Positions 20,841 through 61,770 of a DNA stretch of 64,000 nucleotides are shown here, in pieces. The notes under the pieces are model-generated. The model ran no database searches, was not told where the DNA came from, and saw nothing but the letters and a program-made list of their open reading frames with translations. The translations under genes and the position numbers were made by a program. Every line of letters starts with the position of its first letter. Positions within the stretch are counted from its first letter, which is position 1. This DNA comes from Gemmatimonadota bacterium (GTDB lineage Bacteria > Gemmatimonadota > Gemmatimonadetes > Gemmatimonadales > GWC2-71-9): positions 8,121 to 72,120 of the forward strand of contig JBGPOE010000002.1 in assembly GCA_041487875.1 (NCBI GenBank), in the 5' to 3' direction.

Positions 20841-20858
20841 TGCTTATCTTTGAGCCCC

Positions 20859-21221
20859 ATGGAACTGCTCCAACAGGTGGTCGCCAATCTCGCAATGGAC
20901 GAGAGCAAGGCGGAGAAAGGCATCGGCGCCATCCTGACGGCGCTGCGCATGTCCTCCGACAAGGCGACGTTCGAGCACGTGAAGGCCGTGGTGCCCAACG
21001 CCGAGCGCATGATGGGGCACGCCTTGATGAGCGGTGCGCGCACGGCCGAGCTCGTGGCACCGGTCGGGCCGGCCAGCCTGATGGCGGCGCTCGCGGCGGC
21101 GGGCGTCGGCAAGGACGACGTCCCCCGGCTGGGCCGGATCGTGCTCGAATTCCTGCGGCCCAGCGTCGGCAGTCCCGTGATCGACGCCTTCATGGAGAAA
21201 GCCCCGGGTCTGAAAGGCTGA
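20859..21221 (+). CDS. DUF2780-like protein
   Basis: MELLQQVVANLAMDESKAEKGIGAILTAL... and the C-terminal RIVLEFLRPSVG resemble the DUF2780 pattern. A TTG at 20850 is an alternative start. Confidence 0.5.
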   Translation: MELLQQVVANLAMDESKAEKGIGAILTALRMSSDKATFEHVKAVVPNAERMMGHALMSGARTAELVAPVGPASLMAALAAAGVGKDDVPRLGRIVLEFLRPSVGSPVIDAFMEKAPGLKG

Positions 21222-21228
21222 TGGCGGC

Positions 21229-30964: not shown

Positions 30965-30984
30965 GAGCGGAATCTAACGTAAAA

Positions 30985-31083
30985 TGCCCCAGGCACCCCG
31001 TAACGAGTCCCGACATCGCTTAGCGCTGCTCCCTGCGGGGGCCTGACGCGATTCGCGCGCGGAAAACCTACGGACCTGGGGCA
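30985..31083 (-). ncRNA. ffs: Signal recognition particle RNA (small bacterial 4.5S type)
   Basis: The minus-strand RNA starts UGCCCCAGG and ends CCUGGGGCA, a 9-bp closing helix. It contains GUCAGGCCCCCGCAGGGAGCAGC, which resembles the conserved domain IV GUCAGGUCCGGAAGGAAGCAGC. It lies immediately upstream of dnaX, a classic position. Confidence 0.7.
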
Positions 31084-43881: not shown

Positions 43882-44292
43882 CTAATTGACTTCATCCCAA
43901 GCCAACCCAGCAACAGCATGACACCGATCGCACGCGAGCTCCGTGAGCCCTGCGTCGAACGCCTGGCGATGGCGGCACGTGGGGCACACGCCGTAGGTCA
44001 AGGGGAACAGCCGGCCCACACGCTGGATCTCGCGCGGCTCGCAGCGCACGATGCTCCACCGCTCCGGTGGATGGTAGCGGATCTCGAGCAGCCGGCGGTC
44101 CACCGGTACGTTGTGGCGGTTGACGTCCAACACGACGATGTTGGTCGATGAGATGCGCACGACGGGGTACCACGCGCCGCGGCGCAGCGTGTGCGCGCCC
44201 GACGGGCCGACGCGGGCCCAGCCGCGCGCCTGCAGTCGGGTGGGGGTGATGGGACGGGATTCCATAGGTATCCTATCTAACTCCCTTTCCAT
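43882..44292 (-). CDS. Hypothetical zinc-ribbon protein, paralog 2
   Basis: RRGAWYPV...RWSIV core plus CPTC...CDRC. An internal Met at 44265 is an alternative start. Confidence 0.6.
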   Translation of the reverse strand: MERELDRIPMESRPITPTRLQARGWARVGPSGAHTLRRGAWYPVVRISSTNIVVLDVNRHNVPVDRRLLEIRYHPPERWSIVRCEPREIQRVGRLFPLTYGVCPTCRHRQAFDAGLTELACDRCHAVAGLAWDEVN

Positions 44293-44393: not shown

Positions 44394-44951
44394 TCACTGG
44401 GGCCCGAGCTGCGGCTCCAGATGTTTGCGGTAGCAATCGGGGCAGATGCCGTGACTGAACTCGGCGCGTGAGCGCTTCTCGATGTACCCCTCCAGCGACG
44501 ACCACTCGTCCCGATCGTTGCGGATGCGCTTGCAGTAGCTGCAAATCGGCAGCAGTCCCTCGAGCGCGTGCAGCTCTTCGCGCAGACCGAGGATGCGCTC
44601 GGCCACCGTGAGCCGCGCGCGCAACTCTTCGGGGTCGACGGGCTTCGTGATGAAGTCGTCCACGCCCGCCTCCATGGCGGCGAGGAAGTTCTCCCGCCCG
44701 CCCGTGGCGGTGAGCAGGATGAAGTACGTGTAGCGATCACCCCGCCGCGCCCGCAGGCGGCGGCAGAACTCGAGACCGTCGAGCTGCGGCATGGCCCAAT
44801 CCGACACCACGACGCGCGGCTGCGCAATCTGCCACGCCCCCCACGCCTCCATCCCGTCGTCGGTCGCGGTGACGTCGTGCCCCTGCGCTCGCAGCAGCGC
44901 CGCGAGCTTGGCGCGGGAGACGGGGTCGTCTTCAGCGATGAGGATCTTCAT
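44394..44951 (-). CDS. Response regulator: receiver domain plus a C-terminal Cys4 tail
   Basis: MKILIAEDD...SDWAMPQLDG...ITKP receiver domain. The tail is PICSYCKRIRNDRDEWSSLEGYIEKRSRAEFSHGICPDC. Confidence 0.85.
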   Translation of the reverse strand: MKILIAEDDPVSRAKLAALLRAQGHDVTATDDGMEAWGAWQIAQPRVVVSDWAMPQLDGLEFCRRLRARRGDRYTYFILLTATGGRENFLAAMEAGVDDFITKPVDPEELRARLTVAERILGLREELHALEGLLPICSYCKRIRNDRDEWSSLEGYIEKRSRAEFSHGICPDCYRKHLEPQLGPQ

Positions 44952-47533: not shown

Positions 47534-47717
47534 CCTAGCTCGTCCCTCACGGTGAGAGCGGTTCGCAGTGACTCAGTGCTTGAGATGACTGACTGAAGTA
47601 GTCCCAGCTACCCGCAGAACAGCATTCAAAGCGCGGAAGGTCAAGGTAGAAACTTGCGGGCGGCCGGGCAAGACGCAGGCGAAACCCGCGCTGGCGCGAG
47701 CTTCCCCGCAATTCACA

Positions 47718-48251
47718 TCACAAAGTTGGCCGCGCCAGCGGAAACCGTCCCGCGCGGTGCCGCTCGGCTTCCTTCACATAGTGCTCCCAGGTGCTCCGAA
47801 TCCGCGCCGCGAGCGCCGGGTCCACCGCCCGGGCCACCCGGCCCGGTATCCCCATCACCAGCGACCCCGGCGGCACGCGCATCCCCTCCGGTACCACCGC
47901 CCCCGCCGCTACGACGCTTCCGGTCCCGATACGGACCCCATTCAACAGGACACTGCCCATCCCGATCAGGCAGTCGTCCTCGATGGTGCAGCCATGGATG
48001 ATCGCCCGGTGCCCGATGCCCACCCGGGCACCGATCAGGGCGGGCTTGCCCTCATCCACATGCACAATCGTGCCGTCCTGCAGGTTCGTCGCCTCGCCCA
48101 CGACGATCGCGGCCATGTCGCCCCGCAGCACGGCCTGGTACCACACGCTGGCGCGCGGCCCGAGCGTGACGTCGCCCAGGACGGCGGCCGTGGGGGCGAT
48201 GAACGCCGTGGGATCGATGTTGATTACTGTCTCGTCGGCTGGAACGGCCAC
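47718..48251 (-). CDS. Gamma-carbonic-anhydrase-like hexapeptide-repeat protein (YrdA/PaaY family)
   Basis: GTG start giving VAVPADETVINIDPTAFIAPTAAVLGDVTLG. SVWYQAVLRGD and HGCTIEDDCLIGMGS follow. It overlaps the upstream kinase gene by 28 nt. Confidence 0.8.
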   Translation of the reverse strand: MAVPADETVINIDPTAFIAPTAAVLGDVTLGPRASVWYQAVLRGDMAAIVVGEATNLQDGTIVHVDEGKPALIGARVGIGHRAIIHGCTIEDDCLIGMGSVLLNGVRIGTGSVVAAGAVVPEGMRVPPGSLVMGIPGRVARAVDPALAARIRSTWEHYVKEAERHRAGRFPLARPTL

Positions 48252-50074
48252 TGCACCCAGGCGTCGACGGCGTCGCCGTTCTTCTGGGCGGGATTCCAGC
48301 GGATGAGCTTCGCCAAGTCCAGCGCCTGTTGATTGAACGTCTCGACGTTGGACCCCGAGAACACGCGCGCTTCCATCGTCTCGCCGTCCTTGGAGACGTG
48401 CACCAGGAGAATGGCCTGGCGCGGGAAGATCGGCGCGTCGGACGGCACGGGGATGAACGTCGGCGTGAGCGGCACCGGGCGGGCATCCCAGCACATGCTG
48501 TTCTGGTTGTAGGCCGGTCCGTACTGGCCGCAGGGATCGCTGCCGCGCGGCGAATCGTCCGCCTCCTCCATCGCCACGCGCACCGTGGTGGGCAGACCCG
48601 CGACAATGGTGACCGGCCGCTCGAACGTGGCGTAGCCGGGCGCGGTGACGGTGAGTTTGTAGCTGCCGGGCTGCAGCTCGGGCTGCGCGCTGTGCGCCGG
48701 CTGGCCGTTCAAGCTGACGCGGGCCCCCTGCGGCAAGCCCTGGAGGACGAGCTTGCCGGGGGTGCCGGGCGGGAACGTCGGGTGCGTGGCGGTGTCGCGG
48801 GCGGCCGAATCGGCCGCGGTGCTGTCGCCGCCCGCGAGCAGCGCCGAATCGCGCGCCAGCTGCGAGGCGGAATCGGACGCTGGCTTGGCGCCCGACGCCC
48901 CCGCGAACACCCAGCCTTTCTTCATGGCGAAGTAGCCGCCGCCTCCTAAGATCAACGCGACCAGCGCGAGCCACGTGATCACCGCGCCGACCACCGAGTG
49001 CTTGGGGCCCGCCGGGCCGCCGGTGGTGACGCGCGGCAGCGGCGTGGTCGGCGCGGCCGACACGCGCGGGACGCCCGAGAGCGACGGCAGGGCACGGGTC
49101 GCGGCGGTCGAGATCGACATCTGCAGCGGCGTGAACGCCCCGCCCTCCACCGCCGTGACCATCTCGTCCGCCGTTTGGAAGCGATCGTCGGGCGACTTGG
49201 CCATCATCTTGCGCACGACCTGGAACAGCTCGCGCTTGTCGGGCGTGTCGAGCGCCGGCGCGGGCAGGTCCTCCATGATGTGCTTGTAGCCGATGGAGAA
49301 CGAGTCCTCGCCGTCGAACGGCACGCCGCCGGTGAGACATTGGTACGCCACGACGCCCAGCGAATAGAGGTCGCTGCGGCCGTCGAGCGACTGGGCGCGA
49401 GCCTGCTCCGGGCTCATGTAGTGGGGCGTGCCGATGGACATGCCCGTGCCCGTGAGCTTGCCGCCTGAGGCGGCCTTGGCGATGCCGAAGTCGGTGACGA
49501 CGGCCTGGCCGTGCTCGTCGAACATGATGTTGTCGGGCTTGATGTCGCGATGGACGATGCCGCTCTTGTGCGCGTAGCCCAAGGCGCGGCCCACTTGGGA
49601 CAGCACGACGCGGATCTCCCCCGGCGGCAGCGCGCCCCGTCCGGCGAGAATCGCGGACAGCGGTTTGCCGCGCAGGAACTTCATGACGAAGTAAATCACG
49701 CGGCCCGACTTGCCGACGCGGTAGATCGGGATGATGCCCGGGTGCTCGAGCTTGGCCGACGTGCGCGCCTCGCGCTGGAACCGCTCGACGAATTCCTTGT
49801 CGAAGGCGAGCGAGAACGGCAGGACCTTGATCGCGACATCGCGCTCCAGCTGCCGCTCGCGCGCCTTGAACACGATCGCCATGCCGCCGCGGCCCAGCTC
49901 GTCGAGGATGTCGTACTCCTCTTTGAGCTGCTCGCGCACCATGTCGATTTCCGTCATCTCCGGGTTCTGGTCCCGGACGGTGCTGATCGGCGTGGTGGCC
50001 GTCAGGTCCAGGCCGCAGGACCGGCAGAATTTGGCGGGATCGGGGTTCTGGGTGCCGCAGCGGGAGCAGTACAT
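48224..50074 (-). CDS. Ser/Thr protein kinase with an N-terminal zinc ribbon, one TM, and extracytoplasmic PEGA-like and TonB_C-like domains
   Basis: CSRCGTQNPDPAKFCRSCG; kinase motifs GRGGMAIVFKA, HRDIKPDN, DFG; TM ITWLALVALILGGGGYF; YKLTVTAPGYATFERPVTI; C-terminal LLVHVSKDGETMEARVFSGSNVETFNQQALDLAKLIRWNPAQKNG. Confidence 0.88.
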   Translation of the reverse strand: MYCSRCGTQNPDPAKFCRSCGLDLTATTPISTVRDQNPEMTEIDMVREQLKEEYDILDELGRGGMAIVFKARERQLERDVAIKVLPFSLAFDKEFVERFQREARTSAKLEHPGIIPIYRVGKSGRVIYFVMKFLRGKPLSAILAGRGALPPGEIRVVLSQVGRALGYAHKSGIVHRDIKPDNIMFDEHGQAVVTDFGIAKAASGGKLTGTGMSIGTPHYMSPEQARAQSLDGRSDLYSLGVVAYQCLTGGVPFDGEDSFSIGYKHIMEDLPAPALDTPDKRELFQVVRKMMAKSPDDRFQTADEMVTAVEGGAFTPLQMSISTAATRALPSLSGVPRVSAAPTTPLPRVTTGGPAGPKHSVVGAVITWLALVALILGGGGYFAMKKGWVFAGASGAKPASDSASQLARDSALLAGGDSTAADSAARDTATHPTFPPGTPGKLVLQGLPQGARVSLNGQPAHSAQPELQPGSYKLTVTAPGYATFERPVTIVAGLPTTVRVAMEEADDSPRGSDPCGQYGPAYNQNSMCWDARPVPLTPTFIPVPSDAPIFPRQAILLVHVSKDGETMEARVFSGSNVETFNQQALDLAKLIRWNPAQKNGDAVDAWVQWPFQPTRQ

Positions 50075-50132
50075 TCCGGCGTCCGGGAGGGACGCGGAAA
50101 CTTACGGGTCGCAGGCGAGCAGTGTCAACCGA

Positions 50133-52367
50133 CTAGCGCGCCGTGATTTGGAAGCGTTGGGTGCGCGTGATGACGCGCGACCCCGCCGTGACCGTGACGC
50201 TGAGGAGATACCGCCCGCGCGGCGTGTCGCGCAGGTCGATGCCGCGGTGCACGCGGGTGATCGGACCGTCCGCGGGCGCGTCGAACTCGAGCATCACGGG
50301 CGCGCGCCGGCCGCCGAACAGTCCCGTGATCGCCCCGAAGAACGAGCGCCCGCCTTCTCTTTCGAGCCGCACCACCGTGTGCATCGCTGCGCCGCGCTCC
50401 ATGCCGTACACCTCGTAGTACAGCTCCGCGGCGCTGCCCTGGGGGAAGCGCCCCAGCGGGTTGAGCAGCACAGTATCGCCCGCGGCGCTCCAGAAGAGGC
50501 CCGCACCCCGGCGGCCGAGCACCAGATCGCTCGCGGCCACCACGGAGCCGTCCAGCTGCTCGACCGTGACCGAGTCGCCCAGGACCACGTCGCCGCCCGC
50601 GCTGTCGGGGGTGTTTACGAGCAGGCGATAGCGGTAATCGCCGGGCGGCACCGGGACGGCGAGCTGGCCCGTGAGATACGCGTCGCCGCCCAGCGGCTCG
50701 CGAGCGTGGAACAGGCGCGCCGTATCGACCCGCGCGACCAAGCGGTCGGCCGTATCGGAGACGAGCAGCCGGAAATGCAGCGGGTACACCACGCCGTCCC
50801 CGACCACCGCGCGGCCGGCGAGGCGGTCCGCGGGCACCGCGAACACGACGTGCAGCGCCTGGCCCGTGCCGGTGCCGTCGCCCACCACGAAGTCGCGCGT
50901 GACGAGGCCCAGCGAGGCGTCGAAGCGTTGGCGATAGCTGTCGGTGGTGGTGCCGATCGCGATACTGCGCTGACCCGCCCGCCGCTCCTCGGCGAGCGCC
51001 GTGCCCTGCGCCGCCGTGCCGTGGCTGATGCGCATGTACAAGGGCCCGAACAGCTCCCGCGAGGAGTACAGGTCGGACACCGAAGCGAACGTGCCGCTGG
51101 GCGCCACCACACCGCCCGCGAAACCGAACACGTCGACGAGACTCTCCACCAGCTTGTAATCCTGATTGTGCTCACGCGCCACGAAGTGGAACACCAGGTC
51201 GCCCTCGGGCCGCAGGTACAACCAGCTCTCGTTGGGCTCGACCCCCGGCTTCTCGTAAAACGCCCGCCGATCGGGCTCGCCGTGTCGCAGATAGATGACG
51301 CCGCGGTCGTCGAACTCGCGCTGCGCGGTGCGGTAGACGTCGGTGATGTCGTAGTGGCGGTGACGGCTCGGCAAACGGAAATGCTCGCGCACGTAGAACC
51401 AGCGGCGATAGTGCTCGGCCAGCCGCTCACCCGCGTCGCGCGCGTCGGCCGCGTCGCGGCGATCCCAGAACGGCTCCAGCCAGGCGACGCGCCCCGCGCC
51501 GCCCGCGAGCGTGTCGAAGGTGGCGAGATCCGCGGGGGTCGCCAGCCAGCTCACGTCGTCGCGGTACGCGGCCCGCGCTTCGCCGCTCTGCGCCGCGCGC
51601 GCACCCGCGTAGTACCAGCGCGCGCCGTCGGTCGAGCGCCCCGCCTTGTAAGCGGTGCGCGCGAGCTCGAGGTAGCCCACGCCGGAGTCGCCCCCCAACG
51701 CGAGGTATGCCTGAAATCCGACGAGCGCGGAGTCGGCGTCGCCCACCTCCCGCTCCACCCGGCCGCGCATCATCTGCAGCGCGGGCCGGGCCCCCGCGGG
51801 CGATGTGGCGGCCTGACGCACCGCTGCGAGCGCCACGTCGAGCCGCGGGCCGATCCGCTGCGACAGCGCGGTGGTGGCGAGATCGACCGTCGCCTGCGCG
51901 AACGACGGATCGGCCATGGCCGCGCGCGCGAACGCGTTCGCCGCCTTCGACAGATAATCCTTGTGCAGCCACTGCTGCAGATTTTCGACCACGGGGCTCG
52001 GATTCTCCCCCACGGCGAGCTGGGCCGTGCCGAGACCGTACCAGGGATACGGCCAGCCGGGCTGGAGCTCGCTCGCCCACTCGAACTCCCCGGACGCGTC
52101 ATCGAAATGCGACTTGGCATTGCCGACCTCACCCAGGCGGTACGCGATGAACCCGAGCCGCAGGTGCAGCAGCGCGTTGTCGCGATCCACCTTGGCGAGC
52201 GTGATGGTCGCCTGCTCGAGCCGTCGCAGAGCGAACGAGTCGGTGACGCCGCCGAGCGAGTCGCGCAGCTGCTCGATCGCCGCGCGCTCGGCCGGCGCCT
52301 GGGCGGTCAGGCGGGCTGGCGGGCTCGCGGCCAGCAAGACCAAGAAGATCACGGTGGCGGTGCGCAT
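50133..52367 (-). CDS. Secreted TPR plus GWxTD-domain protein
   Basis: Signal peptide MRTATVIFLVLLAASPPARLTAQ. N-terminal TPR-like helices. The GWxTD-family core is FWDRRD...HYRRWFYVREHF...DDRGVIYLRHGEPD...PNESWLY. Confidence 0.65.
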   Translation of the reverse strand: MRTATVIFLVLLAASPPARLTAQAPAERAAIEQLRDSLGGVTDSFALRRLEQATITLAKVDRDNALLHLRLGFIAYRLGEVGNAKSHFDDASGEFEWASELQPGWPYPWYGLGTAQLAVGENPSPVVENLQQWLHKDYLSKAANAFARAAMADPSFAQATVDLATTALSQRIGPRLDVALAAVRQAATSPAGARPALQMMRGRVEREVGDADSALVGFQAYLALGGDSGVGYLELARTAYKAGRSTDGARWYYAGARAAQSGEARAAYRDDVSWLATPADLATFDTLAGGAGRVAWLEPFWDRRDAADARDAGERLAEHYRRWFYVREHFRLPSRHRHYDITDVYRTAQREFDDRGVIYLRHGEPDRRAFYEKPGVEPNESWLYLRPEGDLVFHFVAREHNQDYKLVESLVDVFGFAGGVVAPSGTFASVSDLYSSRELFGPLYMRISHGTAAQGTALAEERRAGQRSIAIGTTTDSYRQRFDASLGLVTRDFVVGDGTGTGQALHVVFAVPADRLAGRAVVGDGVVYPLHFRLLVSDTADRLVARVDTARLFHAREPLGGDAYLTGQLAVPVPPGDYRYRLLVNTPDSAGGDVVLGDSVTVEQLDGSVVAASDLVLGRRGAGLFWSAAGDTVLLNPLGRFPQGSAAELYYEVYGMERGAAMHTVVRLEREGGRSFFGAITGLFGGRRAPVMLEFDAPADGPITRVHRGIDLRDTPRGRYLLSVTVTAGSRVITRTQRFQITAR

Positions 52368-52404
52368 CGCTATTCCATTATACCCGGCCGCCCGCGAGCG
52401 TTCG

Positions 52405-55197
52405 TCAGAAATCCGAGGAGAACCCGAGATACACCTGCAGGCGGCGCGGTCCACCACTCGGCAACGGCGCGAGCGGTTCGGCCACGCCCAGCCGCAGGCG
52501 CAGCGGCAGATCGTAGCTGATCGTCACGTCGCTCACGAGCTCCGCCCCGGCCGACGCGATGTGCGCGAGGCGCGGTCGCGCGCCCGGATCCCAGGCGTCC
52601 CCCGCGTCGCCGAACAGCGAGAGCGAGAACTTGTCCGCACCCAACGGCAAGTGACCCACGCCCTTCCCCACGAGCGCAAGCGGCAGGCGGTACTCGACGC
52701 TCGCGGTGGCGGCGCGCCGGCCACGCAAGGCGCCAGCCCCATACCCGCGCACCGGGAAGGCCCGCGCCGTCCCGACGCTCCGCCCGAAGCCCACGTCGAG
52801 CGCGCCCGACGACACGCCGCCCACGCCGAGCAGCGTCGGCAATGGGCCCGCGGTGGCCCCGGCAGCGAGGCGCAGCGCGAGCACCGAGTGCGCGAACCCA
52901 CCCAGGCCCGGCGCCGGCAGGTACAGACCCAGCCGCCCGCGCGCCTCGTTGGACCACTCGCCTGAACCCTGGCGCTCGCGGCGCCGCACCAGCGCCACCA
53001 GGGAGAAGCCGTTCTGAGCCGATATCGACAGCGGCCCGGCGAACGCGCGCGCCAGCCCGAGGCTCACCGAGCCCCCCACGAGATCGCGATCGGCGCAGCC
53101 GACGCACACGGCGACCAGCGGCGTGTCGGGCTCCGCCACGAAGCGCCGGCCTTCGAATTCCCCCGCCACGCGCAGGCTCACGGCGGTACGCCAGCGCTGC
53201 CGCACGAACGTGGCGCCCACCGCCGCGTCCTGAGTGCGCTCCGACACGCTGGCGACGGCATTCGACCCGATGAACGACCAGTCGCTCGAGGCCGACACGT
53301 CGAGCGTGGGATTCCCCAGGCGTTGATCGATCAGCGTGAAGGCGCCGGCAGCGCGTCGCGTGCCGGGCGCCACCAACGCCTCGAGGACGTAATAGTTGCG
53401 CGCGAGCGCGTCGGAGCCCGCCGTGACGGCGCCCACGAACGTCCCGGCGCCGCTCGTGCTGAGCAACGCCGGCACCCAGAAGTGCGGCCGCAGGGACGGC
53501 CAGGCGCTGTACCCCGTCTCGCGCGCCGGGACGGCGGGCGCCGTGTCGAACGGCGCGGGTGTGGTGCCGGGCTCCGCGGCGGCAGCGAGCGGCGTCGCGC
53601 GGCGCAGCTGCCAGCCGCGCGCGCCGAGCGTGGCGTACAGGATCGTGCCGTCCACGAGCGACGCGGGATGCCGCGCGCCCGCCGGGTCGGCGGTGAGGCG
53701 CACGGCGCCCGAGTCGGTCCAGCGGTATACCTGCGCGAGGCCCGTCGGGTCGGCGACGAAGAGCAGCGCGCCGTCCGCCGTCCACGCCGGATCGGTCACG
53801 ACTCCTGCCCGCTCGAACAGCACGACGCTCGAATCAGGCGCGTGCGCCGGCCAACGCACCAGCGCCCAGTGGCCAGCGGCGTGACGCGAGGCGGCCACCC
53901 AGCGCCCGTCCGGCGACGGCACGATCGCGCCCCAGGTCGTGCCCGGTGGATCGGGCACGCCGGGAAGCGTGGGGCGGTTGTCGCCGGCCCCGATGGCGAC
54001 GGCGGACACTACGCCAGCGGCCGCGTGCGGCTCGGTGAGGCGCGCGTCGTGCGTGGTGCGGCGCCACGCGCCGTCGGGCGTCCAGCGGTAGAGATCCGAG
54101 CGGGCGCGCCAGCGCGACGTGAAGTCGAGCTGCGACACGACGAGCGTGTCGCCCAGCCAATCGGCGCTGGCGAGCGCATTGACGAGGTGGCGCCGCAGCG
54201 GCCGCCCCGTGGCGCCGTCCGCGACCACGAGCGCACGCGGGCCCTTGCCGTCATCCTGCACGAAGGCCACGCGCCGGCCGTCGGGCGACGCCTGTGGATT
54301 GGGCATGGTCCACAAGCCGTCCGCCAGCAGCGCGCCGCGCGGCCCGTCGGGCGGCGGCGCGGCATCGCGCGTGGCGCGGCGCCAGTCGGCGCTCAGGTCC
54401 GCGGTGGCGTCGGCATGACGCAGCTGGCGTCCCACGCGATACGGAATGGTCTGCGCGGCGGTGGCCTCGACGAACCGCGGGATCACCGAGTCGCCGCGCG
54501 CGCGCGCCACGTAGGCAAAGAACCGGCTGCCGTAGGCGTACGGCATCTCGCCGTCGGGCCAGCGCGTGAACAGCAGCGCGTCCCACGGGCGGCGCGACGT
54601 GCCGCCCCCGCGCTCGGCGCCGAGCAGCGCGGTATGATAGCTGCCGGTGACACGCCCGCCCGCGGTGAGGCGCGATTCGTAATAGACCGCGAGTCCCTCG
54701 ATCACCCAGCTCGGCTGATACGCGTTGGGGAACAATCCCGGCGCCCGGCCGAACACCCGCTGCAGCCCGCCCCAGAAGCTCGCGCTCCGGTCCAAATGGA
54801 AGACGTGGGTGAGCTCGTGCGTGATCACCAGACGCAGCCAGTCGTCGTAATGCTGGAGGGCGGGATCGAGGGCGGGGGGCGCCAGCAGCACGACGATGCG
54901 GTTGGACGGGAAGACGCTGGTGAAGCCGTTGGCCGCATCGACGTCGTCGGACAGGGTGAGGTCGATGGTGCCGCGGGGAGCGTGCAGCTCGCGCGCCAGC
55001 AGCCCGTAGGCGCGCTCGGCTTCGCGGGCGGCGTCCCCCGCCACCGCGCGGAGCGCCGGCCGGAAATGGAGGCGGAAGTGTGCGGTGTGCAGCGTGCGCC
55101 AGGGACCCGCAGGGTCCTGGGCGCGGAGCGGCCGGGGGAGCGACGCGACGAGCGCCAGCACCCCGAGCGCGGACGTGATGAGCGTCACCCGTCGCAT
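52405..55197 (-). CDS. Outer-membrane fusion protein: MA-clan zinc metallopeptidase, PD40/TolB-like beta-propeller and C-terminal beta-barrel
   Basis: Signal peptide MRRVTLITSALGVLALVASLPRPLRAQ. HELTH at 54805..54819 with a downstream WVIEGLAVYYE. Repeated SPDGRxVA-type blades. The C-terminal region has alternating hydrophobics and ends LGFSSDF (terminal Phe). Confidence 0.7.
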   Translation of the reverse strand: MRRVTLITSALGVLALVASLPRPLRAQDPAGPWRTLHTAHFRLHFRPALRAVAGDAAREAERAYGLLARELHAPRGTIDLTLSDDVDAANGFTSVFPSNRIVVLLAPPALDPALQHYDDWLRLVITHELTHVFHLDRSASFWGGLQRVFGRAPGLFPNAYQPSWVIEGLAVYYESRLTAGGRVTGSYHTALLGAERGGGTSRRPWDALLFTRWPDGEMPYAYGSRFFAYVARARGDSVIPRFVEATAAQTIPYRVGRQLRHADATADLSADWRRATRDAAPPPDGPRGALLADGLWTMPNPQASPDGRRVAFVQDDGKGPRALVVADGATGRPLRRHLVNALASADWLGDTLVVSQLDFTSRWRARSDLYRWTPDGAWRRTTHDARLTEPHAAAGVVSAVAIGAGDNRPTLPGVPDPPGTTWGAIVPSPDGRWVAASRHAAGHWALVRWPAHAPDSSVVLFERAGVVTDPAWTADGALLFVADPTGLAQVYRWTDSGAVRLTADPAGARHPASLVDGTILYATLGARGWQLRRATPLAAAAEPGTTPAPFDTAPAVPARETGYSAWPSLRPHFWVPALLSTSGAGTFVGAVTAGSDALARNYYVLEALVAPGTRRAAGAFTLIDQRLGNPTLDVSASSDWSFIGSNAVASVSERTQDAAVGATFVRQRWRTAVSLRVAGEFEGRRFVAEPDTPLVAVCVGCADRDLVGGSVSLGLARAFAGPLSISAQNGFSLVALVRRRERQGSGEWSNEARGRLGLYLPAPGLGGFAHSVLALRLAAGATAGPLPTLLGVGGVSSGALDVGFGRSVGTARAFPVRGYGAGALRGRRAATASVEYRLPLALVGKGVGHLPLGADKFSLSLFGDAGDAWDPGARPRLAHIASAGAELVSDVTISYDLPLRLRLGVAEPLAPLPSGGPRRLQVYLGFSSDF

Positions 55198-55289
55198 AGG
55201 CGCGCAAGCTACTGTCTCCCCTTTCGACCCGTCAATTTCACCAATAGATTGGCGTACCTTTACTTGGGCTTCGTGAGGTTCCCCCATTC

Positions 55290-56357
55290 ATGACGACCTG
55301 CCAGTACTGCGGCCGCGCCAATGAACCCGGCGCGCAGTTCTGCATGGATTGTGGCAAGCCGCTCAGCAAGGAAGCGGCAGCCATGAAGAAGGCCGCCGCA
55401 CCGCGCGCGTCGGCCGGCCCGGGCGCGGCCGTGCCCGGCACCCAAGTCCTCTCAGCCCCCGCCGCCGCGCCGACGGACGCCCCCGGGACCGCGCCCTGTC
55501 CGTTTTGCAACGAGCCGGTCAACGGCAACCTGCCCTACTGTCCGCACTGCGGGCGGCGCCTGTCGGCGCCGGGCTCGGGGCCGGCCTGCGCGCGCTGCGG
55601 CTCGCCGGTGACTCCCGGGACCAAGTTCTGCGCCACCTGCGGAGCCACCCTGGGCGACATCGCCGCCCCCGCGCTGCAGCGGCCCTCATCGCAGCCCGCG
55701 CCGCGCACCGATTTTTCGTTCGTGCTGGTCCAGCTCGACGACGCCGGCCAGCCGCGCCAGCGTTTCGAGCGCAAGAGCACCGACACGACCATCGGCCGGC
55801 TCGACGGCGACATCCGCTTCCCCGAAGACCCGTTCCTCTCGCCGCTGCACACCCGCCTGTCGTGGGAAGATCAGCAGCTGGTGGTGCGCGACCTCGGCAG
55901 CCGCAACGGCACCTGGGTCTTCCTCGATGCACCCTACCGGCTGATGGACGGCGACCTGCTGCTCGTCGGCTCGCAGGTGCTGCGGTTCCGCCGGCTCGGC
56001 TATCCCGGGCCGCACGCACCCGAGGCGGACGCCACCAAGCGCATGGGCAGTCTGATCCCGAGCGCCGACATCGCGAGCCTCACGCAGCTGCGCTCCGACG
56101 GCAGCGCGCGCGACGTGATCCATCTCTCGCCCGGCCGCGACGTGCTGATCGGGCGCGAACAGGGGGACTGGCTCTTTCCCTATGATCCCTCGATGAGCGG
56201 CCGGCACGCGCTGATCCGTTCCGAGGACGCCGACTTCGTGGTGCTCGACGCCGGCAGCCGCAACGGCGTCGCCCTCGCCGCGCGGGGCGCGATGCCGCTC
56301 AAGCACCAGTCCAAGCTGCTGGTCGGCGACAAACTCATGCGCCTCGAGCTGCCGTGA
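55290..56357 (+). CDS. Triple zinc-ribbon plus double FHA-domain protein
   Basis: CQYCGRANEPGAQFCMDCG, CPFCNEPVNGNLPYCPHCG and CARCGSPVTPGTKFCATCG. Two FHA cores (TIGRLDGDIRF...SPLHTRL...DLGSRNGT and LIGREQGDWLF...SGRHALI...DAGSRNG). Confidence 0.85.
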   Translation: MTTCQYCGRANEPGAQFCMDCGKPLSKEAAAMKKAAAPRASAGPGAAVPGTQVLSAPAAAPTDAPGTAPCPFCNEPVNGNLPYCPHCGRRLSAPGSGPACARCGSPVTPGTKFCATCGATLGDIAAPALQRPSSQPAPRTDFSFVLVQLDDAGQPRQRFERKSTDTTIGRLDGDIRFPEDPFLSPLHTRLSWEDQQLVVRDLGSRNGTWVFLDAPYRLMDGDLLLVGSQVLRFRRLGYPGPHAPEADATKRMGSLIPSADIASLTQLRSDGSARDVIHLSPGRDVLIGREQGDWLFPYDPSMSGRHALIRSEDADFVVLDAGSRNGVALAARGAMPLKHQSKLLVGDKLMRLELP

Positions 56358-57952
56358 AGCTCTGCCCCGTCTGCTCCACGGAATTTCCGTACGACGTGAA
56401 GTTCTGTCCCAACGACGGCGCTACCCTGCGCTCGGCGTCCCCGATGTCCGATCTCGTGGGCCAGGTGGTGGCCGACCGCTACCACGTCGTGAAGAAGCTG
56501 GGCGAAGGCGGCATGGGGCAGGTCTACCTCGCCGAGCACGTGAAGATGGGGCGGCGCAGCGCCATCAAGGTGATGAACCCGTCGATGGTGCACGACCCCG
56601 ACGCGGTGGCGCGGTTCAACCGCGAGGCATCCAACGCGAGCCGCATCACCCACCCCAACGTCTGCGCCATTTACGATTTCGGCGAAACGCCCGAGGGGCT
56701 GATCTACCTCGCGATGGAATACATCGAGGGCGAGCCGCTGACCGACCTGCTGCACCGCGAGGGGGCGCTCAAGGTGCCGCGCGCCGTGCACATCTTCCGC
56801 CAGGTGGCCGACGCCCTGCAGGCGGCGCACGATCTTGGCATCGTGCACCGCGACCTGAAGCCCGACAACATCATGCTCACCAAGACGCGCGGCGGCGCCG
56901 ACATGGTGAAGGTGGTGGACTTCGGCATTGCCAAGGCCGTAGGGGGCGACGAGTCCGGCCAGAAGGTGACCAAAACCGGCCTCGTGGTGGGGACGCCGGA
57001 GTTCATGAGTCCGGAGCAGCTCTCGGGCGACAAGCTGGACGGCCGCAGCGACTTGTACTCGCTGGCACTGGTGTTCTACAAGATGCTGACGGGGCAGCTG
57101 CCGTTCGAGGCCGACACGGTCCAGGAAACGATGATCAAGCGCCTCACCGACGAGCCCGCCAAGCTCGCCGCGCTGCGGCCGGATCTGCCGTTCCCGCCCG
57201 GCCTGCAGGAGGTGCTCGACAACGCGCTGGCCCGCACGCCGGTGGACCGCTACCAGACGGTCTCGAAGTTCTCGCAGGACGTGGCGAGCGTCACCGGCGT
57301 GAGCACGGCGACCACGGCGGTGCCCGCGACCCGATCGGACGTCACGAGCGACAAGACGCAGCTGCTCGATGCGTCGGCCACGAAAGCGATCCCTGCGAAG
57401 CGGGCCGGCGCCAAGGCGGCGCCCGCCACGCGCGGCGCGGCGTCCGAGAAGAAGCGCTCGCTCGTGCCGATGGTGGGCGGCGTGGTGGCGGTGCTGGCAC
57501 TGGGCGGCGGCGCATGGGCCGTGTTCGGCCACAAGACGCCACCGGCCAACGGCGCGCAGCGCCCGGCCGACACGACCAAACAGGTCACCACAGTGCCCCA
57601 CGACACGAGCAAGACGCAGCACGCGTCGAAACCGCCGAACAACACGACCAATCCCGGTACCTCCGCGACGGCGACGCAACATCGCGTGGACCCGGCGAAG
57701 GCGGCGGACGCGCTCGACGCGCTGACCGATCTGGTCGACCGCGATCCAGCGGCTGCGCGTGACTCAGCCACCGTCTTGTACGAGGCGGCGTCAGTGGCCA
57801 AGACCGACAAGGCCATGGCGGCGTTCGTGATCGCGAACGCGTTCTGGAAGCTCGGCAATCGTCCGCAGGGCTGCACGTGGATTCGGCGCGCCCAAACCCT
57901 CGATCCCGCGACGCCGACGTTCACCACCGTCGCCACGTCGCAGTGCCAATAG
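56354..57952 (+). CDS. Ser/Thr protein kinase with an N-terminal zinc ribbon, one TM and a small helical extracytoplasmic domain
   Basis: GTGA-coupled to the upstream gene. CPVCSTEFPYDVKFCPNDG; GEGGMGQVYLAEH, HRDLKPDN, DFG; TM LVPMVGGVVAVLALGGGAWAVFG. Confidence 0.88.
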   Translation: MKLCPVCSTEFPYDVKFCPNDGATLRSASPMSDLVGQVVADRYHVVKKLGEGGMGQVYLAEHVKMGRRSAIKVMNPSMVHDPDAVARFNREASNASRITHPNVCAIYDFGETPEGLIYLAMEYIEGEPLTDLLHREGALKVPRAVHIFRQVADALQAAHDLGIVHRDLKPDNIMLTKTRGGADMVKVVDFGIAKAVGGDESGQKVTKTGLVVGTPEFMSPEQLSGDKLDGRSDLYSLALVFYKMLTGQLPFEADTVQETMIKRLTDEPAKLAALRPDLPFPPGLQEVLDNALARTPVDRYQTVSKFSQDVASVTGVSTATTAVPATRSDVTSDKTQLLDASATKAIPAKRAGAKAAPATRGAASEKKRSLVPMVGGVVAVLALGGGAWAVFGHKTPPANGAQRPADTTKQVTTVPHDTSKTQHASKPPNNTTNPGTSATATQHRVDPAKAADALDALTDLVDRDPAAARDSATVLYEAASVAKTDKAMAAFVIANAFWKLGNRPQGCTWIRRAQTLDPATPTFTTVATSQCQ

Positions 57953-57954
57953 CC

Positions 57955-58983
57955 ATGTTCGGACGCTCCTCCAACCCCAAGCCCATCCGGGTCCGCGTCT
58001 TCGGCAAGACGGATCTCGGCAAGACGCGCGACCACAACGAGGACTGCTTCCTCGTGGCCGACCTGACGCGCGGCGACGCGTCGCTCCAGCCGACCGTGCG
58101 CGAGCACGAGGTGGGCGAGCGTGGCACCCTGCTGGTCGTGGCGGATGGCATGGGCGGCGCGGCGGCGGGCGAAGTCGCGAGCGACATGGCGACCAAGACG
58201 ATCTACGAGCAATTGATGAAGAGCTGGGGCGCGGAAACGGAGCTCACGGCGCAGCGCTTCGCCGCGCGCCTCAAGGAAGCCGTGGAGACCGCCAACGGCC
58301 ACATCCACGCGTACGCCAAGGCGCACCCCGAAGTCCGCGGCATGGGGACTACCACGACCGCCGTGGGCGTGCTGGCCGATCACCTCTATCTCACGCAGGT
58401 GGGCGACAGCCGCGCGTATCTGGTGCGCGACGGCGTCGCCGTGCAGCTCACCAAGGACCAGTCGCTGATGCAGCGGCTGGTCGAGGCGGGCGAGCTGACC
58501 GAAGAAGAGGCGGCGCAGAGTGAGCGCCGCAACATCATCCTCCAGGCCTTGGGCCCCGATCCCAAAGTGAAGGTCGATCTCACCTTCCAAGATCTGCGCC
58601 GCGGTGACGTGCTGGTGCTCTGCTCCGACGGGCTGTCGGGCCTCGTGAAGAAGGAAGAGATCGCTGGCGTCGCCGGCAAGGAACCGGACCTGGCCGTGGC
58701 CTGCGAGAAGCTGATCGCCCTCGCCAACGACCGCGGCGGCCCGGATAACATCACGGTCGTGATTGCGCGGTTCGAGGGCGACGGCCTGCCCGCCGACACG
58801 CCCGACCCGGCCGGCCACCAGGTCTATCCCTTGATCGACACCGAGACGAGCACGGAGCCCGTGCCGGTCTACAAGGGCAGCAAGGCGCCGGTGCCGGCGC
58901 GGCGCGCGCGCGCCCGCTGGCTCACGGTGCTGCTGCTCGCGGGCGCGGGGGCGGTGGCCCTCTATCTCGCGCTCGTCCGGTGA
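57955..58983 (+). CDS. PP2C-family Ser/Thr phosphatase with a C-terminal TM anchor
   Basis: KTDLGKTRDHNEDCF, VADGMGG, DRGGPDNITVV. The C-terminal helix is WLTVLLLAGAGAVALYLAL. Confidence 0.88.
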   Translation: MFGRSSNPKPIRVRVFGKTDLGKTRDHNEDCFLVADLTRGDASLQPTVREHEVGERGTLLVVADGMGGAAAGEVASDMATKTIYEQLMKSWGAETELTAQRFAARLKEAVETANGHIHAYAKAHPEVRGMGTTTTAVGVLADHLYLTQVGDSRAYLVRDGVAVQLTKDQSLMQRLVEAGELTEEEAAQSERRNIILQALGPDPKVKVDLTFQDLRRGDVLVLCSDGLSGLVKKEEIAGVAGKEPDLAVACEKLIALANDRGGPDNITVVIARFEGDGLPADTPDPAGHQVYPLIDTETSTEPVPVYKGSKAPVPARRARARWLTVLLLAGAGAVALYLALVR

Positions 58984-60371
58984 AGGCGCAGTTCAAGTTC
59001 CTCTCGGGCGCACGCGCCGGTGAAGTCGAAGCCTTCGGCAAGGCGTACATCGGCGTCGGACGGCACCCACTCTCCGACGTCCGCTTCGACGCCGAGCGCG
59101 ATCTCGACGTCTCGTCGCGGCACGCGTCAATCACGCGCGGGGCCGGGGGGTTCGTGCTCAAGGACTTGGGCAGCAAGAACGGCACGTTCGTCAACGGCAA
59201 GCGGGTCGCGGCCGACGTCCTGCTGCGGGACGGCGACATCATCGCCTTCGGCGACAAGGGCCCGGCACTCGAGTTTCACGTAGTCGACGCGGGCGAGGCG
59301 GCGCCTTCCGAGGCCGGCGCCGCCGATCTCGCCCGGCGCTCCTCGGCGCCGCGAGAATCGTTCGCCGCGAGCGCCGCCCCCGCCCCCGCTCCCGTCGCCC
59401 CGCCCCGTCGCTCCAGCACCGCCGTCCGGTTCGCGCAGGAAGTCGCCCACCTCCGCCGCACCACGAAGCTGCTGTTCGGCGCCTTGGTGCTGGCGTTCGC
59501 GCTGTTCGGATTCCTGCAATGGAAGGGCGGACGCGACCGCGCGCACGACCGCGCGCAGTTCCAGAACCAGCTGCAATCGCTCAACGACGCGTTGACGCAG
59601 TCGCGGCAGGAGGTTTCGCGGCTGGATCGCGAGCTCGTCGCGGCGAGCCGCGTGGGGGACGATTCGACCCTGACGCGCCTTCGCGCCGAGCTCGACGCCG
59701 CCGAGCACCGCTATCGCAGCATCGTCGGGGCGGCGGCGGTGGATTATCGCGGCATCAGCCAGAAGAATCAGGACGCCGTGGCGCTGGTGCTGGTGGATTT
59801 CGGTGCCAGCGAGGTATTCAGCGGCACCGCGTTCGCGGTGGACTCGCAGGGGACCTTGGTCACCAACAAGCACGTCCTGGTGGGCGAAGAGGCCGACCGC
59901 ACGCCGCAGCGCATCGCGGTGAAATTCTCTGGCTCCAAGCAGTGGTTCCCAGGCCGCATGGTGGGCGTCTCCAGCAAGTGGGACCTGGGCGTCGTCAAGG
60001 TCGACATCAAGGGGGGCGTGCCGCGCGTCGCCGGGATCGCCCGGGAGGCTCACGCCGTGCAGCGCGGTGATCCCGTCGCCATCATCGGCTTCCCGCTCGG
60101 CGTCGACTTACCGATGGAAGGCGGCCAGGGGGTGAACGCCGTCGCCGATCCCACCCTCACCGCGGGTACGGTGAGCAAAGTGCTCGACAGTCTCGTGCAG
60201 GTGGACGGATACGGCGCGCCCGGCTCTTCGGGCAGCCCGATTTTCGACCGCGACGGCCGCGTCGTGGCGGTCTTGTACGGCGGCAACCGGGAGTCCGGCG
60301 GCAAGATCATCTTCTCGATTCCGGCCTACTTCGTGGTGGATTACCTCAAGTCGCTCAATCTGCTGAAATAG
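58980..60371 (+). CDS. FHA domain, TM, coiled coil and trypsin-like (S1) serine protease fusion
   Basis: GTGA-coupled to the upstream gene. FHA core (GVGRHPLSDVRF...SSRHASI...DLGSKNGTFVNG). TM LLFGALVLAFALFGFL. Protease triad contexts TNKHV, WDLGVVKV and GAPGSSGSPIF. Confidence 0.82.
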   Translation: MKAQFKFLSGARAGEVEAFGKAYIGVGRHPLSDVRFDAERDLDVSSRHASITRGAGGFVLKDLGSKNGTFVNGKRVAADVLLRDGDIIAFGDKGPALEFHVVDAGEAAPSEAGAADLARRSSAPRESFAASAAPAPAPVAPPRRSSTAVRFAQEVAHLRRTTKLLFGALVLAFALFGFLQWKGGRDRAHDRAQFQNQLQSLNDALTQSRQEVSRLDRELVAASRVGDDSTLTRLRAELDAAEHRYRSIVGAAAVDYRGISQKNQDAVALVLVDFGASEVFSGTAFAVDSQGTLVTNKHVLVGEEADRTPQRIAVKFSGSKQWFPGRMVGVSSKWDLGVVKVDIKGGVPRVAGIAREAHAVQRGDPVAIIGFPLGVDLPMEGGQGVNAVADPTLTAGTVSKVLDSLVQVDGYGAPGSSGSPIFDRDGRVVAVLYGGNRESGGKIIFSIPAYFVVDYLKSLNLLK

Positions 60372-61770
60372 CGCGCGCCGCCGCGCGCTGCATGACTCCG
60401 TCTCCTCCCCACGCACACAACACCGGTACGCGCCCCGGGATCTGTGCCGCGAGCCGCGGATGGCCGAACAGCACCACCAGCGCCGCACCGGGCAACCGCC
60501 GCCGCAGCGCGGCGCGTGAACGGGCGCTCAAGTCGGCGTGGCCTTTCCAGGAGAGGGGATTGGCGAAGACGGCGATGATGCGTGTGCCGTTCTCTGTTAT
60601 CCGTCGCCCGCGACTGTGCAGCTCCCCGGCAAATACGTCGCGCGGGCCGACGGTGTAGGGTCCGCCTGCGTCGTCGTCCACCACCGCGACGCGCAGCGCG
60701 GCGCCGAGTTTCGGTTGCTCGCCGCGCACCCACCGTAGCGTCCGTTGCGCCAGCTGATCGGCGAAGAGGGCGTTGGCGGCCAAGTCGACGTCCCTGTCCC
60801 CTGTCCCCCTTCCCCATTCCCCGATTGTCCGCTCGTAACGCGCCAAAGCCTCGTCCGCCCTGGCGGATGAGATCTCCTTCCCGACGGCCGCGTCGAGCGC
60901 AGCGATCACGGCGGCGAAATCTTCGGGATAGAGCAACCCGTCGCAGCCCGCGGCCACCGCCGCGACCGTGGCCGGCGCCTCCGCTTGCGCGGCGGTGGCG
61001 CCACCCATGATCAGTGCGTCCGTCACCACGAACCCGGAGAAGTTGAGCGGGTCGCGCAGGTATCCGAGAATTGTTGGTGAGAACGCCGCGGCCCGGCCGC
61101 TCGAGTCCCAGCCGGGATAGGCGACGTAGGCGGCCATCACGCTGCCCACGCCCGCGCCGATCGCGGATTCGAACGGCCCCAAATCCGTGGCGGCGAGCGC
61201 GGCGAACGGCGTGGCGACGCGCGGCACGGTGGCGTGGGAGTCCTGGATGGTGCGACCGTGCCCCGGATAGTGCTTGGCACAGGCGAGCACGCCGTGCTCC
61301 TGGCAGCCGCGGATCCACACGGCCGCCTGCTCCCCCACCCGCTGTGGGTCCGCGCCGAACGACCGCGTCTGGATGATGGGATTCTCGGGCTCCACGTCGA
61401 GGTCGCATACCGGCGCGAACGCCCAGTTGAGTCCGACGGAGAGCGCTTCGCCCGCCGTGATGAGCGCCGCGGCGTGCGTGGCGTCGAGGTCGTCCAAGGC
61501 ACCGAGGGCCGCGGGTGGCGGCAGCTCGGTGAGTCCGCGGACCTGCTGGCCGGCGCCGCGCTCCAGGTCCGCGCCGATCAGCAAGGGCCGGCCCGCCTGC
61601 GCCCGCAGGTCGGCGGTGAGTGCCGCCACGGCGTGGCGCGTCCCGCCGAACGCAATGAATCCACCGGCGCCCGCCGCGAGCGCGCGGTCGATCTTCTGCC
61701 GCTCGTGCGCAAACGATCCCCGGCGCCACCGCAGCGCTGGGAAGACGAGCCGTGCCAGCGACGTGGTCAC
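60355..61770 (-). CDS. nagZ: Glycoside hydrolase family 3 beta-N-acetylhexosaminidase (NagZ-like) with a C-terminal extension
   Basis: IGADLERGAGQQ, AKHYPGHGRT, FSGFVVTDAL. At 471 aa it is longer than typical NagZ. Confidence 0.8.
   Translation of the reverse strand: MTTSLARLVFPALRWRRGSFAHERQKIDRALAAGAGGFIAFGGTRHAVAALTADLRAQAGRPLLIGADLERGAGQQVRGLTELPPPAALGALDDLDATHAAALITAGEALSVGLNWAFAPVCDLDVEPENPIIQTRSFGADPQRVGEQAAVWIRGCQEHGVLACAKHYPGHGRTIQDSHATVPRVATPFAALAATDLGPFESAIGAGVGSVMAAYVAYPGWDSSGRAAAFSPTILGYLRDPLNFSGFVVTDALIMGGATAAQAEAPATVAAVAAGCDGLLYPEDFAAVIAALDAAVGKEISSARADEALARYERTIGEWGRGTGDRDVDLAANALFADQLAQRTLRWVRGEQPKLGAALRVAVVDDDAGGPYTVGPRDVFAGELHSRGRRITENGTRIIAVFANPLSWKGHADLSARSRAALRRRLPGAALVVLFGHPRLAAQIPGRVPVLCAWGGDGVMQRAAARAISAD
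60791..60825. repeat. Heptamer array inside nagZ (minus-strand reading GGGGAAT GGGGAAG GGGGACA GGGGACA)
   Basis: Read directly. It encodes GEWGRGTGDRD in the NagZ C-terminal extension. Confidence 0.8.

Follow-up and report, generated by a model that had tools for sequence, protein, structure and literature searches.

A kinase, phosphatase, FHA and protease operon and its variable envelope neighbours in Gemmatimonadales

Gene content of the locus

Circuits made of a Ser/Thr kinase, a PP2C phosphatase and FHA domains are familiar, but few of their outputs are known for diderm soil phyla. A locus that joins these elements to proteases was examined in a soil Gemmatimonadales bacterium. The window, that is, the whole stretch of DNA analyzed, comprises 64,000 nucleotides (GenBank assembly GCA_041487875.1, contig JBGPOE010000002.1, positions 8,121 to 72,120 of the forward strand), with a G+C content of about 70% that is uniform along its length. 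Two strings of four genes diverge within it. PepBarrel, the GWxTD gene, STPK1 and a gamma-carbonic-anhydrase-like (gamma-CA-like) gene run leftwards; ZnFHA2, STPK2, PP2C and FHAprot run rightwards. A preliminary description had presented all eight as one trans-envelope system. Comparison with related loci (about 170) indicates that the rightward string is a self-contained operon, and that the region as a whole is probably a mosaic of separable modules. The features are as follows.

47718–48251, minus strand: gamma-CA-like protein with hexapeptide repeats; its start overlaps STPK1 by 28 nt
48224–50074, minus strand: STPK1, receptor kinase with a zinc ribbon, a kinase domain, a transmembrane (TM) helix at residues 357–384, and an ectodomain with PEGA and TonB_C-like domains
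50133–52367, minus strand: GWxTD protein, secreted, with the signal-like segment MRTATVIFLVLLAASPPARLTAQ at its N-terminus; belongs to the envelope cassette and is variable
52405–55197, minus strand: PepBarrel, 930 amino acids, with a signal peptide, a gluzincin-like domain (HExxH...E), a TolB-like propeller and an Omp85-type 16-strand barrel
55233–55266, plus strand: conserved block CAATTTCACCAATAGATTGGCGTACCTTTACTTG upstream of ZnFHA2, with the palindrome CCAATAGATTGG at 55241–55252
55290–56357, plus strand: ZnFHA2, soluble protein that combines zinc ribbons with two FHA domains; first gene of the operon
56354–57952, plus strand: STPK2, Hanks-type receptor kinase with a zinc ribbon at the N-terminus, a TM helix at residues 369–392 and an extracytoplasmic tail of about 140 residues
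57955–58983, plus strand: PP2C, phosphatase with a C-terminal TM anchor at residues 320–342; follows STPK2 after a 2-nt gap
58980–60371, plus strand: FHAprot, in which a cytoplasmic FHA domain, a TM helix at residues 161–182 and a helical linker precede an HtrA-like S1 protease domain in the periplasm

All eight open reading frames were recovered at these coordinates, with a G+C content at third codon positions of 0.84–0.93 in the frames given. Domains were assigned with Pfam and NCBIfam, and TM helices with a hydropathy scan. The reading frames, the domain searches and the reading of the sequence bear out the genes, domains and junctions of the preliminary description. The junctions include GTGA overlaps at 56354–56357 and 58980–58983, a 2-nt gap at 57953–57954, the 28-nt overlap of STPK1 and the gamma-CA-like gene at 48224–48251, and a 92-bp divergent region at 55198–55289. 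One correction concerns the GWxTD gene, the start of which is the ATG at 52367, 37 nt past the stop of the barrel gene. The block is flanked on the left by genes for a class II ribonucleotide reductase (RNR) and a response regulator, and on the right by nagZ, anmK and murQ (the mur genes hereafter).

The ZnFHA2–STPK2–PP2C–FHAprot operon

No TM helix was found in ZnFHA2 by the hydropathy scan. Pfam recognizes two stretches each of FHA (70.7 bits), Zn_Ribbon_1 and DZR in this protein, and its N-terminal zinc ribbon matches that of the archaeal zinc-ribbon/FHA protein ArnA (PDB 5a8i, E = 3e-5). The FHA scores of ZnFHA2 and of FHAprot (67.9 bits) both exceed the PF00498 cutoff of 20.7, and the phosphothreonine (pThr)-binding residues GR...SxxH...NG are present in all three FHA domains, the two of ZnFHA2 and the one of FHAprot.

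The start of STPK2 overlaps the stop of ZnFHA2 by 4 nt (GTGA). STPK2 reaches 174.3 bits with the Pkinase model and carries the motifs HRDLKPDN, DFG and SPE. Both STPK2 and STPK1 (167.4 bits) lie well above the PF00069 cutoff of 31.7 with their catalytic motifs present, and are thus Hanks-type kinases. The model of PASTA kinases (NF033483, cutoff 450) aligns with the kinase domain alone and gives 320 bits for STPK1 and 335 for STPK2; PASTA domains were found in neither kinase by Pfam. PP2C narrowly passes the Stp1/IreP model (NF033484, 236.6 bits for a cutoff of 230), residues 18–271 aligning with positions 1–231 of the 232 of the profile. Its C-terminal TM anchor is an addition to the Stp1/IreP catalytic domain.

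FHAprot, which is joined to PP2C by the second GTGA overlap, contains an FHA domain (67.9 bits) and a Trypsin_2 domain (76.2 bits); no PDZ domain was found in the Pfam search. Among structures, HtrA1/DegP-like ones are closest to the protease profile (HtrA1, E = 4e-17), and GarA/Rv1827 is matched by the FHA domain. In the alignment, conservation extends to the protease motifs with the catalytic His (TNKHV) and Ser (GSSGSP). In one orthologue (L013:3551–4741, minus strand), an alignment gap removes the segment with the catalytic His and Asp; this sequence may represent a degraded protease, or an artefact of assembly or frame. A profile search with FHAprot returned 2083 matches, and the 120 listed are all orthologues from Gemmatimonadales with 55–82% identity. 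From the hydropathy scan, the kinase and PP2C domains and all three FHA domains are predicted to face the cytoplasm, with the protease domain and the ectodomains of the kinases outside it. The 3′ ends of FHAprot and of the convergent nagZ overlap by 17 nt (60355–60371), leaving no space for a terminator between them.

Conservation of the operon was assessed in two scans. The one anchored on the barrel gene took one genome per species and yielded 80 loci with a barrel identity of 47–63%, all labelled as metagenome-assembled genomes of Gemmatimonadales or Gemmatimonadota except for one Chloroflexi and one "uncultured bacterium". These loci were queried by tblastn with all the proteins of the window, and 61 could be assessed downstream of the barrel gene. 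The scan anchored on FHAprot yielded 80 metagenome loci, of which 35 could be assessed for the operon, 54 on the side of the mur genes and 24 on the left side. The operon is intact in 34 of the 35 FHAprot-anchored loci and in nearly all of the 61 barrel-anchored ones, some of the latter being without STPK2 or FHAprot. ZnFHA2, STPK2, PP2C and FHAprot thus form a tight, self-contained operon, the rightward string behaving as a genuine transcription unit would.

Seven loci lack STPK2 but have ZnFHA2 and PP2C (L004, L074, L024, L046, L111, L113 and L148), and the last four of them also keep FHAprot. The retention of FHA genes in such loci suggests that another kinase, possibly STPK1, can substitute for STPK2.

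Synteny breaks at the 3′ end of the operon, where FHAprot is followed by the mur genes in 26 of the 54 metagenome loci and by unrelated genes elsewhere; about one third of the barrel-anchored loci likewise carry unrelated genes beyond FHAprot in place of nagZ-anmK-murQ. The link to cell-wall turnover that these neighbours had suggested is therefore weak. The left boundary also breaks, as in L134, where MacB-type ABC permease genes are found.

A conserved upstream block

When the 160 nt upstream of ZnFHA2 were aligned for 22 loci, a block with the consensus CAATTTGCCnAATAGATTGGCnnnCCnTAAyTTA was found about 45 nt before the start codon. Its core AATAGATTGG occurs in 21 of the 22 regions, and only the distant L090 is without the block. 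It is retained whatever the left neighbour, be it the barrel gene, the amidase gene described below, the GWxTD gene or an ABC permease gene. The block may serve the operon as a promoter or operator, and loosely resembles the promoter layout of Bacteroidetes (TTTG/TAnnTTTG). A scan of 47400–60600 for the sigma-70 consensus returned 0 promoters, and a scan of the same region for intrinsic terminators returned one terminator-like site, which is intragenic; these yields are below those of shuffled sequence.

Envelope genes on the opposite strand

The N-terminus of PepBarrel is a hydrophobic segment by the hydropathy scan. It is followed by a domain in which the four residues of the HExxH...E motif (H127, E128, H131 and E167) are invariant, both in alignments of close homologues and in very diverse ones, down to about 25–30% identity. 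Peptidase models remain below their thresholds. The best for the protein of the window is YgjP-like (E = 0.012), and Peptidase_MA_2 reaches 25–30 bits on distant relatives for a cutoff of 32.4. The family profile matches TolB propellers (E = 1e-35) and, weakly, BamA. In the AlphaFold model (predicted local distance difference test, pLDDT, 61.7), the C-terminal barrel matches BamA/TamA with a Foldseek probability of 1.0 (E = 4e-7). The model is poor in the N-terminal domain, with pLDDT values under 50 at residues 137–266, so that the fold search is informative for the propeller and the barrel only. By sequence, the protein of the window gives only a weak match to BamA (E = 1e-4), and its relatives carry the Pfam domains Omp85 (PF01103) and Tricorn_N. 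The preliminary label of a peptidase/propeller/barrel fusion is supported by the propeller and the barrel matches; its peptidase part is based on the HExxH...E motif and is not backed by the Pfam models.

More than 1000 close homologues of PepBarrel were found, all in Gemmatimonadota. An exhaustive search of representatives at 50% identity gave 4631 relatives, in which the architecture remains full-length as far down as about 30% identity. The modelled barrel, the propeller and the PF01103 matches of the relatives place PepBarrel in the WD40-Omp85 subfamily of the Omp85/TpsB superfamily. That subfamily was defined from sequence and structure prediction, with no experimental function reported and no mention of a peptidase domain (Heinz & Lithgow 2014, PMC4104836). 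Like its members, PepBarrel has a 16-strand Omp85 barrel preceded by a TolB-like propeller, and no POTRA domains. The Gemmatimonadota proteins differ by the additional N-terminal domain with the invariant HExxH...E, and their genes are often translationally coupled to that of an AmiC-like amidase. PepBarrel thus belongs to a published but uncharacterized class, extended by a conserved metallopeptidase-like domain. A literature search returned nothing specific on Omp85-peptidase fusions in Gemmatimonadetes.

The gene of this N-acetylmuramoyl-L-alanine amidase (about 630 residues, with a C-terminal Amidase_3 domain) separates ZnFHA2 from the barrel gene, whose strand it shares, in 54 of the 80 barrel-anchored loci (for example L003:7977–9863, plus strand). 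No copy is present anywhere in the 64-kb window, and only an internally deleted fragment is left in L102 and L107. In L084, L087 and L089, the end of the amidase gene overlaps the start of PepBarrel by 4 nt, a coupling by which the pair points to remodelling of the peptidoglycan or outer membrane. As a hint of a role in the cell wall, the amidase is better than the mur genes.

The GWxTD protein passes its family model marginally (TIGR04514, 32.4 bits over residues 300–414 for a cutoff of 28). This part of the earlier GWxTD/TPR label is retained, but the TPR part is weakly supported (PrsT, E = 3e-5). The gene is present in 31 of the 61 barrel-anchored loci. The literature search brought up no mention of the GWxTD family. 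The 37-nt gap between the barrel and GWxTD genes (52368–52404) contains GGGTATAATGG, in which the hexamer TATAAT can be read without mismatch along the coding strand; it could be an internal promoter for GWxTD and STPK1.

STPK1 combines Pkinase (167.4 bits, with the motif HRDIKPDN), PEGA (28.1 bits) and TonB_C (35.5 bits) domains. It is found in 61 of 61 loci of the clade of the window, in every case directly downstream of PepBarrel or of the GWxTD gene, and is followed throughout by the gamma-CA-like and RNR genes. The gamma-CA-like protein has hexapeptide repeats (Hexapep, 56.6 bits) and is a left-handed β-helix of the gamma-CA/PaaY/CaiE group, scoring below the gamma-carbonic anhydrase model (NF050158, 152.9 bits for a cutoff of 250). 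Its gene adjoins that of RNR even where STPK1 is missing (L084, L090 and L171), and belongs to the old backbone with RNR.

Synteny across relatives

A complete lack of synteny in related genomes, which would have spoken against the preliminary description, was not observed, the genes being syntenic in about 100 loci of Gemmatimonadales. RNR is as strictly conserved in place as any other gene of the block. The block is therefore collinear, and synteny at this depth is no evidence of function.

Deeper relatives were taken as long contigs from a profile search built on distant PepBarrel members. Where the identity of the barrel protein has fallen to 43% (L082) and 39% (L083), STPK1 still lies downstream, accompanied by the amidase gene in L082 and by ZnFHA2 in L083. 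In a sister clade, in which RNR is about 66–69% identical to that of the window, L090 and L172 have the full orthologous operon, divergent from the amidase and barrel genes, with neither STPK1 nor GWxTD at the locus. Both outer flanks are changed in L172: gal genes stand in for the mur genes at one end, and three dockerin-like genes are present at the other. The latter (13008–22117, minus strand) are tandem genes of about 1000 codons with Dockerin_1/Flg_new_2 domains, which lie between the barrel and RNR genes and replace the gamma-CA-like gene.

PP2C is the only signalling gene left between the mur genes and the amidase-barrel pair in L084 (Gemmatimonadaceae), L171 (Gemmatimonas sp.) and L087, with 54, 57 and 46% identity, respectively, to that of the window. 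No signalling gene occupies this position in L089 and L085. PepBarrel and the amidase thus persist with neither kinase nor FHA gene at the locus in L084, L171, L087 and L089. The more distant barrel homologues of L081, L086 and L088 share no context with the window. Neighbour-joining recovers the same clades from RNR as from PepBarrel.

The converse loss is found closer to the window. To the left of ZnFHA2 in the FHAprot-anchored loci, 17 of 24 have the barrel gene and 7 lack it. These seven (L100, L112, L114, L137, L168, L102 and L107) keep the operon as well as GWxTD, STPK1, the gamma-CA-like gene and RNR, the last of which is 87–90% identical to that of the window, placing them among its closest relatives. 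The GWxTD gene is then directly divergent from ZnFHA2 in L100, L114, L137 and L168, and also in L112, a shorter locus. As each is found without the other, PepBarrel and the signalling genes are separable in both directions.

On the simplest reading of these gene contents, the arrangement of the operon divergent from the amidase-barrel pair would be ancestral to both clades; the operon would later have been reduced to PP2C or lost several times; and STPK1 would be specific to the clade of the window and have been gained in it.

Discussion

The pattern of presence and absence across the sister clades splits the cluster into independent modules. It is proposed, with a probability of about 60%, that the region is a mosaic of such modules set in an anciently collinear block that extends from murQ-anmK-nagZ to the class II RNR. 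The first module, the four-gene operon, would be a reversible pThr switch, its catalytic and pThr-binding motifs being intact. The second would be a variable envelope cassette divergent from the first, comprising the amidase, the WD40-Omp85 protein and the GWxTD protein, any of which can be absent. STPK1 would be the third, gained in the clade of the window and translationally coupled to the gamma-CA-like gene of the backbone.

In the proposed switch, STPK2 would autophosphorylate or phosphorylate partners on threonine upon an extracytoplasmic cue, and the membrane-anchored PP2C would reset the pThr state. The marks would be read by the three FHA domains, two on ZnFHA2, which may serve as a soluble scaffold or competitor, and one on the cytoplasmic tail of FHAprot. 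Reading of pThr by FHAprot would mean that phosphorylation in the cytoplasm recruits, clusters or positions the protease in the periplasm, amounting to an inside-out control of envelope proteolysis. In a more specific and tentative version, the FHA domain of FHAprot would dock onto pThr on the receptor kinase or the scaffold and thereby gate or position the protease; the amidase and the WD40-Omp85 protein, in loci that have them, could be targets or co-workers in the remodelling of the cell wall and outer membrane. A functional link with these envelope proteins is at most facultative, as the operon and the amidase-barrel pair each survive alone. The cassette has long neighboured the operon and would be a plausible, though facultative, partner of it. 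If the proposal is true, Ser/Thr phosphorylation in the cytoplasm directly controls proteolysis in the envelope: FHAprot would hard-wire a pThr reader to a periplasmic protease through one helix, a concrete route from phosphorylation to the envelope.

Several points weigh against a mosaic and this mechanism. The operon and the amidase-PepBarrel pair have remained divergent neighbours across a deep divergence, even in L172 with its altered flanks, which could reflect a functional tie. Two receptor kinases flank a cassette the products of which are all extracytoplasmic, an arrangement that fits a single system. The seven loci lacking PepBarrel are metagenome contigs, and PepBarrel could be encoded elsewhere in the same genomes. 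Many loci come from similar soils, so that the locus counts are phylogenetically non-independent. The inside-out mechanism is inferred from domain topology.

The trans-envelope system of the preliminary description has both kinases controlling the trypsin-like protease and an outer-membrane metallopeptidase, with the TonB_C domain of STPK1 reaching the barrel. In TonB and in GltG/GltJ of Myxococcus, TonB_C-like domains dock to barrels of the outer membrane, and STPK1 carries such a domain; the block is syntenic across the clade of the window with STPK1 invariably downstream of PepBarrel or GWxTD, a position held even at 39–43% barrel identity (with ZnFHA2 in L083), and the operon diverges from the amidase-PepBarrel pair in L090 and L172. 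Yet of 24 loci, 7 lack PepBarrel while retaining both kinases, all FHA genes and GWxTD, and PepBarrel subsists with the amidase in four loci devoid of kinase and FHA genes. GWxTD is found in only half of the loci, STPK1 is limited to one clade, RNR is equally syntenic, and the distant homologues of PepBarrel have unrelated neighbours. Synteny within one collinear block that includes RNR is no proof of a single system. The eight-gene system is thus quite unlikely; what stands of the original idea is the trans-membrane coupling suggested by an FHA domain linked through the membrane to a periplasmic protease.

A role in peptidoglycan homeostasis, as a Gemmatimonadales counterpart of the PknB/PstP/FhaA circuits of actinobacteria and firmicutes, with hydrolysis and recycling of the cell wall as output through the amidase, PepBarrel as its partner in the outer membrane and murQ-anmK-nagZ, is also considered unlikely. 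It would account for the presence, in 54 of 80 loci, of an Amidase_3 gene separating ZnFHA2 from PepBarrel and for the 4-nt overlap of this gene with PepBarrel in L084, L087 and L089, for murQ-anmK-(nagZ) flanking the block in both clades, and for PP2C staying beside the amidase where the kinases are lost. The Stp1/IreP family, whose model PP2C passes, is tied to cell-wall signalling in Firmicutes. However, the window itself has no amidase gene, the mur genes adjoin the operon in just 26 of 54 loci, with gal genes taking their place in L172, and both kinases fall below the cutoff of the PknB_PASTA model and lack PASTA domains. No rodA, pbpA, mviN or cwlM-type gene was seen among the annotated genes in or beside the cluster, and the adjacency could be mere collinearity of the block, as it is for RNR. 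As to an anti-phage or conflict system assembled from kinase, FHA and protease parts, both kinases match the PD-T4-6 and mad6 kinase models of PADLOC (E = 1e-66 to 1e-95), and the protease of FHAprot weakly matches RT-Protease_XI. The NCBIfam score for MAD6 is nevertheless far under its cutoff, and no other PADLOC component was matched. A stable chromosomal position by housekeeping genes across a deep divergence and the uniform G+C content are also unlike such a system, and the single-pass topology of the kinases, with extracytoplasmic tails, looks like envelope sensing. This very improbable reading was rejected because the PADLOC matches are confined to generic Hanks kinase and trypsin domains.

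The mosaic that is favoured here contains an operon with several known relatives in design. A receptor kinase, a PP2C phosphatase and FHA domains are likewise encoded in one operon in the actinobacterial cluster fhaA-fhaB-pstP-rodA-pbpA-pknA-pknB, in the firmicute Stk1/Stp1 (PrkC/PrpC) and in PpkA/PppA/Fha of type VI secretion (T6SS). The FHA domains of the window are closest in sequence to those of the mycobacterial FhaA (TB39.8) and GarA. The operon differs from these switches by its tail-anchored PP2C and by having one of its FHA domains joined, across a TM helix, to a protease in the periplasm. It falls outside the actinobacterial cluster, with 57 bits for FhaB/FipA (cutoff 125) and neither rodA nor pbpA in or beside it, and outside the T6SS group, with 32.4 bits for TIGR03354 (cutoff 120) and no T6SS genes among the annotated neighbours. 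By analogy, the operon would work like the known switches of Hanks kinases, PP2C and FHA domains, but its gene content and model scores place it outside these groups.

Single proteins also have known counterparts from which they differ. The protease domain of FHAprot, predicted to be periplasmic, is most similar to HtrA1 and DegP-like members of the HtrA/DegP/DegS family, but FHAprot has a cytoplasmic FHA domain and a single TM helix in place of a signal peptide or DegS-type anchor; it lacks a PDZ domain and scores 44–53 bits with models having cutoffs of 416–470. ZnFHA2 resembles ArnA of Sulfolobus acidocaldarius, a soluble adaptor of phospho-signalling in which a zinc ribbon precedes an FHA domain, but is bacterial, has several zinc ribbons and two FHA domains, and belongs to an operon with a kinase, a PP2C phosphatase and a protease; no vWA partner like ArnB was seen. 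FHAprot and STPK1 recall GltG/GltJ of the Agl-Glt gliding machinery of Myxococcus, in that a single TM helix connects an FHA domain or zinc ribbon in the cytoplasm with a periplasmic portion. The likeness is architectural only, the GltG model giving 37.7 bits on the FHA region of FHAprot for a cutoff of 650. STPK1 differs by its kinase domain and FHAprot by its protease domain, and no other gliding genes were found.

An FHA-FHA-trypsin architecture was merely listed for Bacteroides thetaiotaomicron (NP_811686.1) in a 2008 survey (PMC2605481). No functional study of an FHA-trypsin architecture was found in the literature, and the search returned nothing specific on operons of FHA, trypsin and PP2C genes, an eLife paper on conflict systems touching FHA in passing. 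For the WD40-Omp85 class, the loci compared here provide a first genomic context: in Gemmatimonadota, its genes lie beside that of an AmiC-like amidase, to which they are often coupled in translation.

Minor features of the window

Two small genes lie just past RNR on the minus strand. One is an open reading frame of 136 residues with a weak zinc-ribbon match (43882–44292), and the other encodes a stand-alone response-regulator receiver (44394–44951). The search with Rfam found no RNA family in the eight-gene region. Its sole match in the window is a small bacterial signal recognition particle RNA (RF00169) at 30983–31082 on the minus strand, with 41.6 bits for a gathering score of 40.

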